From IMG/VR virus record IMGVR_UViG_2703718811_000015, positions 1 to 11,923 of that record: a stretch of DNA of 11,923 nt, one strand, 5' to 3'. Origin of the DNA: a virus (lineage: Duplodnaviria; Heunggongvirae; Uroviricota; Caudoviricetes). This document shows, piece after piece, positions 3,001 to 9,000 of the stretch. Made by a program: the position numbers. The stretch's first letter is position 1. The number at the start of each line of letters is the position of its first letter.

Positions 3001-6000
3001 CAAATCCTCGCCATTCTCAAGCCAGTTGCGAACGATATCGCCAACCAGATCCGAACTCCCCATGATGGATGCGAGCTGCTCCTCGTTGTAATCCCGTCCA
3101 AATACGGTATTACTGGTTTTTACGCCAGCCAGATCAGGCATTGAGGGGGCAAAAAACTCGTAATCGCTCAGATCACCACGCTGAATAAGTTCACGAATCG
3201 TTGTAGGCTTGATCAGGCATTCGTAGTACTTCCCCATCCAGGCTGCGAACGGGGTACCGGAAAGTCCAAGAACCCTGATGTCTCTGTCCCGGATAACCTC
3301 AAGTAACGCACGACGCTTCATGTGTGCTTCATCGATGATCAGCAGATCGATGTTGTCAGGAAACTCACGACGGATCAGAGTGTCGGCACTGGCAATCTGA
3401 ATCAGTCGTGACGGGTCATAGTTAGGGTGATCACGCCATACAAAACTGATTTCTTCCCACGGCAAACCGTATTCGGTGAAACGTTCCGCTGTCTGGTTCA
3501 GCAGGATGGTGTACGGACAGACAAACATCACCCGCATACCACGTTCAACCATTCCGGCGGTGACGAATGCTGCAAGACCAGTTTTGCCAGAGCCAGTGGG
3601 TGCGTACATCAGGTACGTGCGATGCTGTTTCCACTGGTGCCGCAGCTGGTTTAAACCGCGCTCCTGAGCAAAGTTTGGGATTATTTTCAGCATGACGCCC
3701 CCTTACTACGTGATTTACCCGTTGCCGGGATCACGTCGATCTCATCGCAAACGTATTGATCCGGATTACGTGAACAGCGCAGAAGCACGATACCAGGAAT
3801 GCCGTATAGCTTGAGTCTGCGCAGTTTCAGTATTGAACGTGCCCGTGGTGACGCTCTGTCCACCTCGATCGCGCACCGTTCACCAGATGGGGCAACGACC
3901 ATGATATCGACGAATCCGCGCTTACCGTTGCCCATATCAACCAGATAATTACGTTCGATCGCCAGTCCGGCATCACGCAATTTGGCAGCCAGCACATAAT
4001 CAAACGTGACCTTGTCTTTTCCGGTGTAGAATTTCTTTCCGAGCAGGCTGATAACCACATGTTTGATGAACATGGTACTATTTCCACTGTGATAGTTAGC
4101 ATGATAATAATTTAGCCAGAAACTATCGCGTCCTATACAGTGATCTACCTAACCTATGGAGCTGCCTTTCTCTGGTAGTGCCCTTACGGGCACGGATGTT
4201 ACAGATCTGCCCCCTTACCCCCTTCTTAGTAAAATTTCAAGCGAAATAATTTCACGCGAAATTATTTCACAAGAAACAATACCTTATTGAGGTTTTACTC
4301 CTTCCGTACCGCTACTGGCGAAAGCATCCAGCCACGGCTGGCTCTCGCGTACTTCTGGACATACACCCGTAACCGGGTGTTGGCGCTCCGTCTTGCCCTG
4401 TTGCCCTTCCTGAACGATACAGGCTCCTTGTCCCACTCTTCCTGGTACACTCTCGCGTACTCTGCTGCAATTTTTACCCTGGTGGTCGGGTCTAGCTGTA
4501 ACAATTGCTCCTGTATCCAGTCCCGATCAGCATCGCTGTACTGATCGGGCATAACCGTTTTGATTTGCCTGTTCACTCACACCTCCGGTGCGCTGTGTGT
4601 CCAGGATTAATCATCGCCTCTTACGAACGCAGGGAACGGACGAACCTCTTCCGCCTCAACTGTGCCGTCATCAAAGGTTTTGACGTATATTTCTCGTCCG
4701 ACGAGAAGCGCTTTACTGATTGCACTCTGCGCCACGCCAAAGTCCTTAGCGGCTTTCTTTTGGCCGAACCTGTATACGTAATCAGCCAGGGTCTCTTTTT
4801 TCATCGCCATAACTGACTCCTTCAAAATGCCCATATCATTACGCACAGTTATTAAAATGTCAACACCGCAGATATTTCATTACATATAACCAAAGGTGAT
4901 ATGGTATGAACATGAAAAAGAAACCGTTAACCCCTGAGCAACTGGAAGACGCCAAGCGTCTGAAAAGTATTTTTAACGCTAAAAAGAAAGAGTTAGGCCT
5001 GTCGCAGGAATCATTAGCCTATGAATTAGGTGTTACCCAAAGCGCTGTTAATCAGCTAATGGCTGGCATCAACGCCATAAATGCCAGCCACGCAGCACAG
5101 CTTGCTAAGATACTGAATGTAAAGGTCGGAGATTTCAGTCCCAGCCTGGCAAAATCTATTGCAGAAATGGCGCTCGCAATTGAAGAGCCATTAACTCGTG
5201 TCCCCGCTTACGAATATCCGTTACTCTCCTGCGTACAAGCTGGCGCATTCTCAATGGATGATATTTCGTACACCGCAAAAGATGCGATTAAATGGATCTC
5301 CACCACCACAAAAGCCAGTGACAGGTCGTTCTGGCTGGAGGTCAAGGGGCATTCAATGACCGCACCGCAGGGTGGTAAACCCAGTTTCCCTGAAGGGATG
5401 CTGATACTCGTTGACCCTGAACGGGAGATTGAGGATGGCGATTTTTGCGTGGCCCGAATGAACGGCGATGAATTCACCTTCAAACGATTCATTCGTGAGA
5501 GCGGTAAAGCGTACCTGGAGCCGCTCAACCCACGATTCGACATGATTGAGTGTAACGAAAACTGCCAGTTTGTCGGAAAGGTCATCAAATCGCAGTGGAA
5601 TGATGAGACTTTTGATTGATCTCAAAGAGCGATTTAACATCCATCACGTCCTTTGGGGCGTGGAGGATGTCAACATCACTAATTTAACTAGCAAGGTCGT
5701 GCCGAAGGTGTTGTAATGAAAGATATTATTAATGTTTCAAGTCTGGACGACATTGAATCTTTGTTCGCAAGGTTAGATGGTGGCGAAGAGATAACTATCG
5801 ACAGGATCAAGTTAGACCTCTTCAATAATGTGAATTTTAAGATTTATGGTGATCCTTCTCGCTACAACGGAACACTTCCCTCTTCTCTGGCTCAGGGTTT
5901 ATGTGAGTTTCAGACTGAAATTTATAAAGTTTTCACACTGATAAAATATAAAACGGACAACCTTCAAAGGTTAACTGGTAAAGATAAAGATGAAGCAGAG

Positions 6001-9000
6001 ATCATCTTTACCATTAATGAAGGTTGTACTGATATACTTGCTGCATTAACAGAGCTTTTTGAAGCATTCGGTAAAGCCTTTGAGAAGGTCACACACGGTA
6101 TGAGTCCTAGCCAAAAAACATTATGCTTCTTGTTTGCTGTCACCGTTATAGGCGGTGCGTGGGTTGGTACATCATACTTAGAGAAAAAAGCCGAAGTAGA
6201 AGTTAAGCAAGAAGAAACAAAGCTTGAAGAAGCCAAGATTAAATCAGAAAACGAGCGCATGACGATCTTAAGGGACGGAATGCTTGAGTCGATTAGAGCT
6301 AAAGCGGGCATAGATGCTGTAGAGCGCGCCGAAGGGATTCAAGAGCATACTGCAAAAGCGTATACAGGGGTATTAAAAGGCGCGTCTGATGCTGACAAAA
6401 TTGTCATATCAGGCGCAAGCACCGTTGAACTGTCTAACAAAGAAATCCACGAACTAATCAAGAATCCTATCGAAAAAGCAAAAAAAGAAGAAAGAAATCT
6501 TGAATTAGTCATTGATGGGATCAAGCGTACTGCGGAAAAGATAACCCTAAGCTGCCGCGAACCATCTAGTGAAGACAGTTTCCCTGTTTCAGTCGACACG
6601 TCGTTCATAGATGATAAAGACGAGATCGCCATACTGTTTGATGCAATGAAAGAAAACAGGACAGTAAAAATCTTGGGAAGCTACACGATACGAGCAGGTG
6701 TAATAGAAAACGGAAACGCATCAACCATCACTCGCCCATAACAGAAAATTTAACCCCGGCCCCTGCGCCGGGCTTTTCTTTGCATATCCCCTCCTGTTAT
6801 CTGTCCCCTTAAAAAATAAATCACTTTAAAAATCAGTTAAGTAATAATTTTTCGCCCTAAAAAGCACTGGCGGTATTTACATGAAAATCACCGCAAGTTA
6901 TATTTATTTCAAGCCAGAAACATCGCGCCCTTACACAGGGCTACATAAATCAGTCGTACGGCGCGACTTAACCCGCCGCAAAATGCTCTTTAACAATCTG
7001 GAGCTTTACAGCGTCAATGACCTGTTTAGACCCCTACACGTAAACGTGCTGTATCATCGGGTGCGATCCGGTCGATGAGAGAGTATCCCCGCGCGAGAGC
7101 GAGAACGGCGTGAGAACGGGCAACACTGGCAGGAAGTTGGCGCTGACCAATACAGGGAATGTTTTGGGGTGTGGTGAAGGGTTCATGGACGGGAATATGT
7201 CGCACGTAAAGCGGCGAGGCCCGAGGGACTATTGCTGAAGATAAGTAGGCCGAATCGGGTCGAAATGGGTCTCCCACCTGCCACATCGCCAAAGCGTTTC
7301 TGAGAAAGGACGGTATTGACTGCGTGTGATGTCGGGGCTATATTTGGCAAACACCTTATAAAACGGGTGTCGGGATTAGGACCCCGCTGACAATCGAGGC
7401 GATACAGACGCGCCAGCGTCTTTTTTTGTATCGACATACACGCACATCTTATCAATGGTGGGCTGTATGGGGCCGACTTCGGTCGGGCTGGTTCCCTTGA
7501 TTGCCAGTAGTCCTAACCCTGTACAGTCCACCGCCAGCGAGCTTAGGACCTCCTGCGGTGGTTCTCAATCACCAATCAAGGAGGCTGCCATTATGGCTAC
7601 TATCCCTGCCCTTTCTCAACCTGAAATCACCATTCAGAATGGTCGTGCCGTCACAACATCTGTTGCTATTGCAAATTTCTTTGACAAACGACACGAACGT
7701 GTAATTGATAAAGTTCGCAATCTGGAATGTTCGATTGAATTTGCTGAACACAATTTTGTGTCGAGTAAATACACCGACTCAACCGGGCGCAAACTCCCAA
7801 TGTACCAAATCACCAAAAACGGCTTCGTCTTCCTGGTGATGGGATTCACTGGTAAAAAAGCCGCTGCATTCAAGGAAGCCTACATTGCTGAATTCGATCG
7901 CATGGAAAAACAACTATGGGAACAGAAACAACTGGCCCTGTCTTCTCCTGCGATGAATATCAATTTCCCTTTATCGTGGTTTTCAGAGCATCACCCCTAC
8001 GCCACGATGAACTATGTTGATCGCAAAGTTATCAGCCTTGATGCTTCCGTGCTCTTCGATATGCCAAGCCCAACTATGCGCATCCTCAATGAGCTACACA
8101 GCAAGGGCTATAACGTCGATGCAGCTGTCGCCGAATTTAACGCCTTCAAGCATCTGACGGAAGAAATGCGCCGCACGCTACAGGATATTTCAAGACTGTC
8201 AGATCGAAATTCCCGAAAAGGCTTCTCGTTAAGTCTTTAAAGAACAGATCGTTTGACAATGCTGCATTAACGGGGATATATTCCGCCTCATGGTGCTGAA
8301 CACACCTTGCAAAGCGGAGACCGCACCCGTCAGTCATGCGGCTTTTTTATGTCCATTTTTCAGATATGGTCGGGTAGCGCGTATACCGAAAAACAGCCGA
8401 AAGGTTAAGGATACGGGCCGACTTTGCACGGTGTTCAAGTACCTGGCCGCCCTGCTGAACACAGGGCTATCTGAACAAATGCAAAGGACATAAAATATGA
8501 ACTCTCAACTCATCCCCGTATTCAACGGCACCATCGCCAACGAAACTACCCTGTTCTGTAATGCCCGTGATTTACATACTTTTCTTGGGGTAGGTAAACG
8601 CTTTGCGTCTTGGATTACAGAACGCATTGCTGAATATGGTTTCGTTGAAAATCAGGACTATATGATTGCTTCCCAAATTCGGGAAGCAAAAGGTAGAGGC
8701 GGTCACAACCGCAAGGAATACCACCTCACTCTCGATACAGCCAAAGAGTTTGCGATGGTTGAACGTAACGAAAAAGGCCGTCAGATCCGCCGATACTTCA
8801 TCGAGTGCGAAAAGAAACTTCGCCAGAGCCTTTTACCTGCACCAATGAACATCAACTACCCCCTCTCGTGGTTCTCAGAGCATCACCCCTATGCCACGAT
8901 GAACTATGTTGATCGCAAGGTTATCAGCCTTGATGCTTCCGTGCTCTTCGATATGCCAAGCCCGGTGATGCTGCCAACTTACTGATTTAGTGTATGATGG

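Follow-up and report, generated by a model that had tools for sequence, protein, structure and literature searches.

A mobile single-gene cassette in the cI operon of lambdoid prophages encodes a predicted single-pass membrane protein and candidate phage-exclusion factor

The DNA analysed here, called the window throughout, is the 11,923-nucleotide stretch at positions 1 to 11,923 of the IMG/VR virus record IMGVR_UViG_2703718811_000015 (Caudoviricetes). Directly after its lambda-type cI repressor gene lies a gene for a protein of 341 amino acids (aa), a member of PHROG 6191. We propose that this protein is a lysogen-expressed exclusion factor, made of a single polypeptide, that would protect the host against heterologous phages at the envelope stage. 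We give this reading a probability of about 0.5, and we consider a defence function of any kind to be probable. Lysogen-expressed exclusion is the best-supported reading because of the position of the gene, its portability, its carriage by temperate elements only, the purifying selection acting on it and the defence-type genes found among its neighbours. Prophage immunity cargo in the cI operon is of a known kind; the family would be a new one in this slot, and its architecture has not been described before. The gene and its immediate setting are as follows (window coordinates, strand in brackets).

4607..4846 (-): cro-like gene, divergent from cI, a 79-aa open reading frame (ORF) corresponding to a gene that related genomes annotate as a Cro/CI family regulator
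4858..4901 (no strand): OR-like operator sites in the cro-cI interval, 17-mers at 4858-4874 and 4885-4901
4906..5619 (+): cI repressor of the lambda type with HTH_3 and Peptidase_S24 domains, from Pfam and PHROG matches
5620..5715 (+): leader of 96 bp, from the cI stop codon to the ATG of the 341-aa gene
5716..6741 (+): 341-aa gene, PHROG 6191 member, ATG start, from the ORF call
6755..6781 (+): intrinsic terminator closing the cI operon and belonging to the mobile cassette, a hairpin with a T-rich tail
6862..6904 (+): OL-like operators overlapping a PL-like promoter, lambda-like 17-mers at 6862-6878 and 6886-6902

A preliminary description of this DNA had reported an intact 341-codon ORF that starts 96 bp after cI on the same strand with its own Shine-Dalgarno sequence, is closed by a terminator placed before OL/PL and is richer in AT than the flanking genes. 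All of this was confirmed. The Shine-Dalgarno sequence GAAGGT (5704-5709) lies 7 nt 5' of the ATG, and the terminator stem (6755-6772) consists of six pairs, all of them GC, followed by CTTTTCTTTG. The GC content of the ORF is 40.4%, against about 48% in its flanks (47.6% in cI and 48.7% in cro) and 47.5% in the window as a whole. The repressor assignment is supported by Pfam (S24, 9.5e-29; HTH_3, 8e-10) and by PHROG 4 ('transcriptional repressor'). The two OR-like 17-mers differ from the lambda TATCACCG half-sites by 5 and 3 mismatches of 16, and 3' of the terminator a PL-like site (TTTACA-17-TATATT, 6876-6904, + strand) overlaps the OL-like 17-mers. The interval from cI to the terminator holds one ORF only. 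With operators on both sides and the terminator so placed, the layout is that of lambda cI-rexA-rexB-timm-OL/PL. No terminator-like or promoter-like site was predicted in the 96-bp gap between cI and the gene, and transcription from PRM, together with cI, is therefore the simplest inference.

The position after cI recurs in many other prophages, and the gene moves independently of its flanks, as the preliminary description had suggested when it regarded the gene as a horizontally acquired moron. Among all the loci fetched, 29 carry a family gene 24-220 bp 3' of a cI-like S24 repressor gene and on the same strand. The repressors of these loci fall into 12 clusters at 60% identity, one of which is common to the cI proteins of the window and of phage mEp332. 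The gene likewise stands right after cI, followed by early-left genes (N in PhiR12), in phages that have been isolated: PhiR12_1 to PhiR12_5, with a 99% identical protein, mEp332 (43%) and phi458 (25%). The same post-cI position is seen in Citrobacter prophages with different cI/cro pairs. Alignment of the flanks revealed the conserved unit, which comprises about 45 nt of leader including the Shine-Dalgarno sequence, the ORF and the terminator hairpin. The ~45-nt leader is common to the window and PhiR12/L018 despite their different cI genes, with divergence beginning 5' of it. The hairpin after the stop codon is kept in 10 loci, beyond which the sequences of the loci are unrelated; in one locus (L026) the stem is altered on both sides, so that pairing is retained. 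These comparisons support the view that leader, ORF and terminator together constitute a horizontally mobile cassette. The slot itself can be filled differently. With cI/cro at 95-97% nucleotide identity, E. coli G1/2 (L015) and FHI_NMBU_10 (L016) hold other cargo, and the literature describes the cI-N interval as a mosaic hotspot and as the home of the abortive infection (Abi) systems rexAB and bstA (PMC8585504). In one of these two strains the slot holds a gene of ~100 codons, probably a fragment, whose annotation is BsuBI/PstI-family restriction endonuclease, and in the other a hicA-hicB toxin-antitoxin pair on the opposite strand.

Decay of the gene was observed in two places. The closest chromosomal relative of the window is the Stx1c-encoding prophage of E. 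coli STEC1585 (L017), in which the orthologue (L017 7217-7954) has been reduced to 245 aa by an internal deletion. In an IMG/VR locus (L053), the gene ends early, at 203 aa, and adjoins a transposase gene of the insertion sequence (IS) type. The gene is thus dispensable in some lineages.

The ratio of nonsynonymous to synonymous substitution (dN/dS) was calculated for the two homologues with unsaturated dS, and was 0.035 against the PhiR12 homologue and 0.10 against a homologue of 90% identity. Judged by these ratios, the 341-aa gene is real and under strong purifying selection. A profile search of 1.84 billion representative proteins placed at least 737 clusters at 50% identity in the family (E<=1e-3; 286 at E<=1e-10), and a repeat search with a divergent profile returned an essentially unchanged set. 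Among the matches listed, nearly all family clusters are 300-380 aa long, and this uniform length therefore points to a single conserved architecture. Sixty close homologues come from Citrobacter, Cronobacter, Dickeya, Pantoea, Yersinia, Klebsiella, Serratia, Salmonella and Xenorhabdus, and named members reach Aeromonas, Oceanimonas, Vibrio, Photobacterium, Pseudoalteromonas and Pseudoduganella, so that the family ranges over the Gamma- and Betaproteobacteria. Its carriers are restricted to temperate phages and proviruses, and a scan of genome contigs found the gene in only 3 GTDB species representatives.

Database searches agree with the earlier suggestion that the family is uncharacterised. 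The protein matches PHROG 6191 ('unknown function') over its full length (E 2.9e-99, 333 bits, aa 5-340 on profile positions 8-333 of 338), and all the named members are called 'hypothetical protein' in their sources. It has no match in Pfam (E<=0.1), NCBIfam or PADLOC (E<=1), and 53 divergent relatives likewise show no recurrent Pfam family and no PADLOC 2.0 match. Foldseek retrieved nothing from the PDB at E<=1e-3 for the predicted model, and a sequence-profile search of the PDB gave a chance-level match only (E 0.55). No solved structure matched the protein as a whole. A structure search of BFVD returned only two full-length look-alikes, both uncharacterised, one of them from Leptospira phage LE1. 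The GenBank label 'T2SS GspM containing protein', attached to the PhiR12 and mEp332 homologues, was rejected, as it has no Pfam support and no such match recurs among the 53 relatives. A paper on HepS was set aside as irrelevant, for it concerns a HEPN nuclease.

The domain organisation of the protein was predicted with AlphaFold2, run with 36 homologues, and with hydropathy and conservation analyses, and is given below (window coordinates, all on the + strand).

5716..6105 (+): N-terminal alpha/beta domain, aa 1-130, predicted cytoplasmic, AlphaFold2 predicted local distance difference test score (pLDDT) 76-94
6121..6180 (+): predicted single transmembrane (TM) helix, aa 136-155, Kyte-Doolittle hydropathy 1.65
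6181..6255 (+): charged linker helix rich in E and K, aa 156-180, of variable length, with the lowest conservation (0.13) and the lowest occupancy (0.87)
6256..6480 (+): helical hairpin, aa 181-222, and small beta/alpha unit, aa 226-255, with conserved Y216, K221 and D225-A226-D227
6481..6738 (+): C-terminal oligonucleotide/oligosaccharide-binding (OB) fold, b1-b2-b3-helix-b4-b5, predicted periplasmic, from the AlphaFold2 model

The full chain was modelled at a pLDDT of 80.2 and a predicted template modelling score (pTM) of 0.66. From the N-terminus onwards, the model shows an alpha/beta domain (aa 1-124), a hydrophobic helix that begins at aa 131, a stretch with pLDDT below 50 across the E/K-rich segment (aa 151-167), long helices at aa 166-196 and 199-222, a small beta unit and a C-terminal barrel; the N-domain modelled alone gave a poor result (pLDDT 54). 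The order of an N-domain, one helix, a charged segment and a C-terminal domain had already been read from the sequence, and those statements hold, with the OB-fold added by AlphaFold2. Mean pairwise identity is highest in the N-domain (0.28), lower in the OB-fold (0.19) and lowest in the linker (0.13), and near-invariant positions of the family are G45, L86, G103 and M129.

The single hydrophobic helix of the preliminary description proved to be a family-wide feature. The segment LCFLFAVTVIGGAWVGTSYL, at aa 136-155, is the sole window of the protein with a Kyte-Doolittle hydropathy above 1.6, and the most hydrophobic 19-mer lies at one aligned position in 52 of the 53 divergent members (18-47% identity to the window protein). 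This 19-mer belongs to a run of about 21 uncharged residues that keeps its position but not its sequence, which is the signature of a transmembrane helix. Within the run, G147 is 75% conserved and a small-xxx-small motif is found in 46/53 members, which hints at helix-helix packing. The five-residue flanks of the segment carry, in 128 representatives, a mean net charge of +0.93 on the N side and -0.38 on the C side. The N flank is the more positive one in 91 cases versus 22, K or R comes first among the charged residues of that side in 112/128, and the bias is clear over flanks of 3-8 residues. No signal peptide was found in the 341-aa protein. By the positive-inside rule and the absence of a signal peptide, we infer a single-pass, N-in/C-out topology, in which the N-domain would lie in the cytoplasm and the linker, hairpin and OB-fold in the periplasm. 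Coevolution analysis (mean-field, Neff, the effective number of sequences, 144; columns with <=3% gaps, after a first pass dominated by co-occurring indel blocks) placed 47 of the top 80 pairs within the N-domain, 29 within the C-terminal module and none between the two, although N-C pairs make up 40% of all pairs. This result fits an arrangement of N-domain and C-terminal module as two non-contacting modules.

The predicted topology speaks for a protein that acts at the envelope, no later than genome entry. In the mechanism that we propose, a promoter-less moron cassette (the ~45-nt leader with its Shine-Dalgarno sequence, the 341-codon ORF and its own terminator) would have been inserted after cI, and the lysogen should transcribe it from PRM because of this insertion, as lambda does rexAB. 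The product would be a single-pass inner-membrane protein with its conserved 130-aa N-domain in the cytoplasm and a glycine-containing TM helix; in the periplasm, a charged and variable spacer helix would lead into a helical hairpin and end in an OB-fold head. This stalk with its OB module may, at the inner membrane, recognise the apparatus that delivers the incoming phage genome, or obstruct it, and the conserved cytoplasmic domain may anchor, regulate or relay. A more elaborate version, which we regard as unlikely, makes the protein an 'outside-in' sensor in one polypeptide: the periplasmic OB head would detect the tail-tip/tape-measure complex, ejected proteins or DNA before or during genome entry, the glycine-zipper TM helix would signal across the membrane, and a cytoplasmic executor domain of novel fold would carry out exclusion or abortive infection.

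Comparison with known systems places the gene in a familiar position and the protein outside the familiar architectures. Lambda rexA-rexB also lies 3' of cI and 5' of the terminator that precedes OL/PL, has a membrane component and is expressed in the lysogen, as we expect of the present gene. Unlike it, Rex comprises two genes, for the cytoplasmic sensor RexA and the polytopic channel RexB, whereas the slot in the window has a single gene encoding a single TM helix. As the preliminary description had noted, no resemblance to RexA, RexB or SieB is apparent: neither Pfam (E<=0.1) nor PADLOC (E<=1) detected RexA or RexB homology, and the 341-aa protein has no match to the Pfam SieB model PF14163; a separate SieB-family gene is present in one related locus. 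BstA, of Salmonella BTP1 and relatives, is likewise a single gene 3' of the repressor with its own terminator, and its product is soluble, with an N-terminal domain of the KilA-N type. The bstA terminator is Rho-independent, the gene is found in diverse Gram-negative prophages and the protein localises to phage DNA replication sites, so that it acts in the cytoplasm (PMC8585504). The 341-aa protein differs from BstA in its TM helix and predicted periplasmic C-terminus, and BstA models in Pfam and PADLOC matched neither it nor its 53 relatives. PHROG 6191, the protein's own family, has no assigned function and is therefore mechanistically uninformative.

The proteins AbiP of Lactococcus and PdpSau of S. 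aureus prophages are alike in being single proteins with a membrane anchor and an OB-fold, both of which are predicted in our case. They bear on a rival explanation, namely abortive infection by membrane damage, in which the 341-aa protein would be a one-protein counterpart of RexA plus RexB or of PdpSau/AbiP: its OB-fold or N-domain would sense infection, and its glycine-rich TM helices would then oligomerise, with depolarisation of the membrane and death of the infected cell ahead of phage release. PdpSau, which is prophage-encoded, acts on the membrane and depolarises and permeabilises infected cells (PMC10127798), the slot after cI also houses the Abi systems rexAB and bstA (PMC8585504), and the conservation of G147 and of the small-xxx-small motif suggests packing beyond that of a mere anchor. 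However, each chain has a single TM helix and no known pore domain, and the PADLOC Abi models show no sequence match. AbiP and PdpSau have an N-terminal TM segment and a cytoplasmic, basic, nucleic-acid-binding OB-fold, whereas in the 341-aa protein the TM helix is central, a conserved domain of 130 aa precedes it and the OB-fold is acidic and, from the flank charges, periplasmic. No sequence relationship to either was detectable in a comparison made through PADLOC models. The C-terminal module has 17 K+R versus 21 D+E and, being net acidic, is a poor fit for nucleic-acid binding, which also counts against this explanation. We consider membrane-damaging abortive infection unlikely, while ranking it above the other alternatives.

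Envelope-stage exclusion proteins such as P22 SieA, T4 Imm and HK97 gp15 are anchored in the inner membrane and act at genome entry. Unlike the 341-aa protein, Sie proteins are small and have no conserved domain in the cytoplasm. SNIPE, a single-pass anchored protein, contacts the tape-measure protein and ManYZ and in this way works where the phage injects (PMC13190303). It carries DUF4041 and a GIY-YIG nuclease behind an N-terminal anchor; the 341-aa protein differs in architecture, and Pfam found neither DUF4041 nor a GIY-YIG nuclease in it. A cytoplasmic mode of action like that of AbiP, PdpSau or SNIPE fits less well (PMC10127798; PMC13190303).

Besides the slot after cI, family genes occupy prophage ends. 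In E. coli UTI89, NU14 and similar genomes, the gene lies at the far end of a lambdoid prophage by prfC, past the tail fibres and Lom; the variant of UTI89, a uropathogenic E. coli (UPEC), is 67% identical. In Yersinia ruckeri and Serratia it stands at the ends of myovirus-type prophages, and in Salmonella at the edge of an element found at two different chromosomal insertion sites. At the right end of the genome of Pasteurella phage Pmp14, a type VI retron (L003 2638-5002) lies 85 bp 5' of the family gene; its helix-turn-helix (HTH) gene overlaps the reverse transcriptase (RT) gene (PADLOC RT_VI, E 2e-88), the product of which GenBank calls 'polymerase'. Type VI retrons consist of a small-protein toxin, an HTH protein and an RT (bioRxiv 10.64898/2026.04.27.721009). 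The idea that the family protein is a retron component was rejected, for the adjacency is seen in Pmp14 only and type VI retrons are complete without it. Other neighbours include a DUF3024 protein matching the PADLOC candidate PDC-S43 (9e-42) and, by umuDC, a DUF2971 protein matching PDC-S31 (3e-22). More widely, we found N peptides, the one SieB, NleG, a SopA-like effector, Ail/Lom, and one match each to PADLOC mad1, PADLOC mad2 and Pfam Nmad5. Scanned with PADLOC and Pfam, a further 34 neighbour proteins for the most part matched N peptides and structural or regulatory phage proteins and revealed no recurrent partner, from which it follows that the protein probably acts alone or with host factors. 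The support for a defence or exclusion role that comes from the rex slot, the moron slots at prophage ends and the RT_VI, PDC-S43 and PDC-S31 neighbours is positional and by association. Virulence and defence-type morons occupy common slots. The SopA-like effector gene (L046 838-3261, - strand; also in L053) encodes an 807-aa HECT-type E3 ligase with pentapeptide repeats and lies beside a family gene.

Such virulence cargo in moron slots, with NleG, the SopA-like effector and Ail/Lom as neighbours, would also be expected if the protein were a lysogenic-conversion or host-fitness factor serving the envelope, stress or colonisation, like lambda bor and lom, and used highly expressed moron slots. 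The window comes from a Stx1c-type prophage lineage of Shiga toxin-producing E. coli (STEC) and a variant is present in the UPEC strains UTI89 and NU14, and sugars or metals are common ligands of periplasmic OB-folds (AB5 toxin B subunits, SilF, YgiW). However, the environmental genera among the carriers (Aeromonas, Pseudoalteromonas, Photobacterium, Pseudoduganella) have no common host niche, and the strongest positional link is to the repressor operon and defence-type neighbours. We regard a conversion role as rather improbable.

The repressor operon also invites the explanation that the protein is a prophage life-cycle factor that tunes induction, the lysis-lysogeny switch or the timing of lysis on sensing superinfection. 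RexA has reportedly been proposed, in a 2021 study cited in PMC12315714, to modulate the lysis-lysogeny switch or induction. Hex of phage 434, a product of the PRM transcript, blocks RecA-mediated repressor cleavage (PMC3564112). However, no cI adjoins the gene where it lies at the ends of myovirus-type or lambdoid prophages or by the Pasteurella retron. Given these occurrences and the 12 unrelated repressor types, its function cannot depend on one particular switch, and a life-cycle role is the least likely of the explanations considered.

Several observations weigh against envelope-stage exclusion. The defence-gene neighbours come from single loci each and are anecdotal, and the virulence morons NleG and the SopA-like effector are found among the neighbours as well. 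None of the PADLOC 2.0 models, including the computational 'PDC' candidates, resembles the protein or its 53 divergent relatives, and our literature search found no published study of, or experiment on, the gene or any family member. Carriers are rare, at 50 of 5,426 complete E. coli genomes. The charge bias disappears with flanks of 12-15 residues, and the positive-inside rule is the sole basis of the topology. The pTM of 0.66 and the poor N-domain-only model could mean that the helix is buried in a globular fold instead of spanning the membrane. Finally, the invariant G45, L86, G103 and M129 suggest no catalytic site by which to explain the N-domain, the most conserved part of the protein.

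The rest of the window contains several further features. On the - strand, 1212-3693 holds a replication module made of a DEAD/DEAH helicase (506 aa) and a DUF7146 protein (323 aa), not lambda O/P, followed by a DUF1367 protein in the NinB position, NinG and NinH. On the + strand, an isrK Hfq-binding RNA (7351-7426, Rfam, 61.7 bits) stands in tandem with a C4 antisense RNA (7451-7538, Rfam, 78.9 bits), and the pair comes after a promoter-like site (7316-7344) and a terminator-like one (7406-7421). We take this arrangement to resemble an antirepressor control module of the P1/P7 immI type or the Gifsy isrK type. The two RNAs lie just 5' of, and overlap, the start of a Rha/Ash-like ORF (7455-8240, 261 aa), which has probably been called with its start too far upstream. 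A match to sRNA-Xcc1 (8368-8456, + strand, 65.9 bits, E 2e-10) lies directly 5' of an AntA-family ORF (8497-8985). The Rha-like and AntA-like ORFs are near-identical over about 40 aa near their C-terminal ends (NIN[FY]PLSWFSEHHPYATMNYVDRKVISLDASVLFDMPSP); on this likeness, the C-terminal module is common to two different antirepressor-type N-domains. A complete IS1 of 768 bp (8964-9731), with the ends GGTGATGCTGCC... to ...GTCATTACC and the InsA/InsB ORFs, truncates the AntA gene to 162 aa, the last six codons being supplied by the IS1 end; the STEC1585 gene has 636 bp (about 211 codons). IS1 joins the prophage to cbpA and to yccE, the product of which covers no more than positions 1-340 of the YccE model with its 418 positions. 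The prophage of the window is therefore a truncated remnant, in which cI and the 341-aa gene are still intact.

The hypothesis is experimentally tractable, since PhiR12_1 to PhiR12_5 and mEp332 grow on E. coli K-12 or C. If the gene is a defence gene, it would add a widespread family, of the size given above, that defence-island screens have missed and that reaches across the Enterobacterales, Aeromonas, the Vibrionaceae, Pseudoalteromonas and one betaproteobacterium. Its architecture, in which a central TM helix separates a conserved cytoplasmic domain from an OB-fold predicted to be periplasmic, is unlike that of described systems. The finding would also support mining the cI-to-PL interval and the prophage ends past the tail fibres for lysogen-expressed immunity genes.

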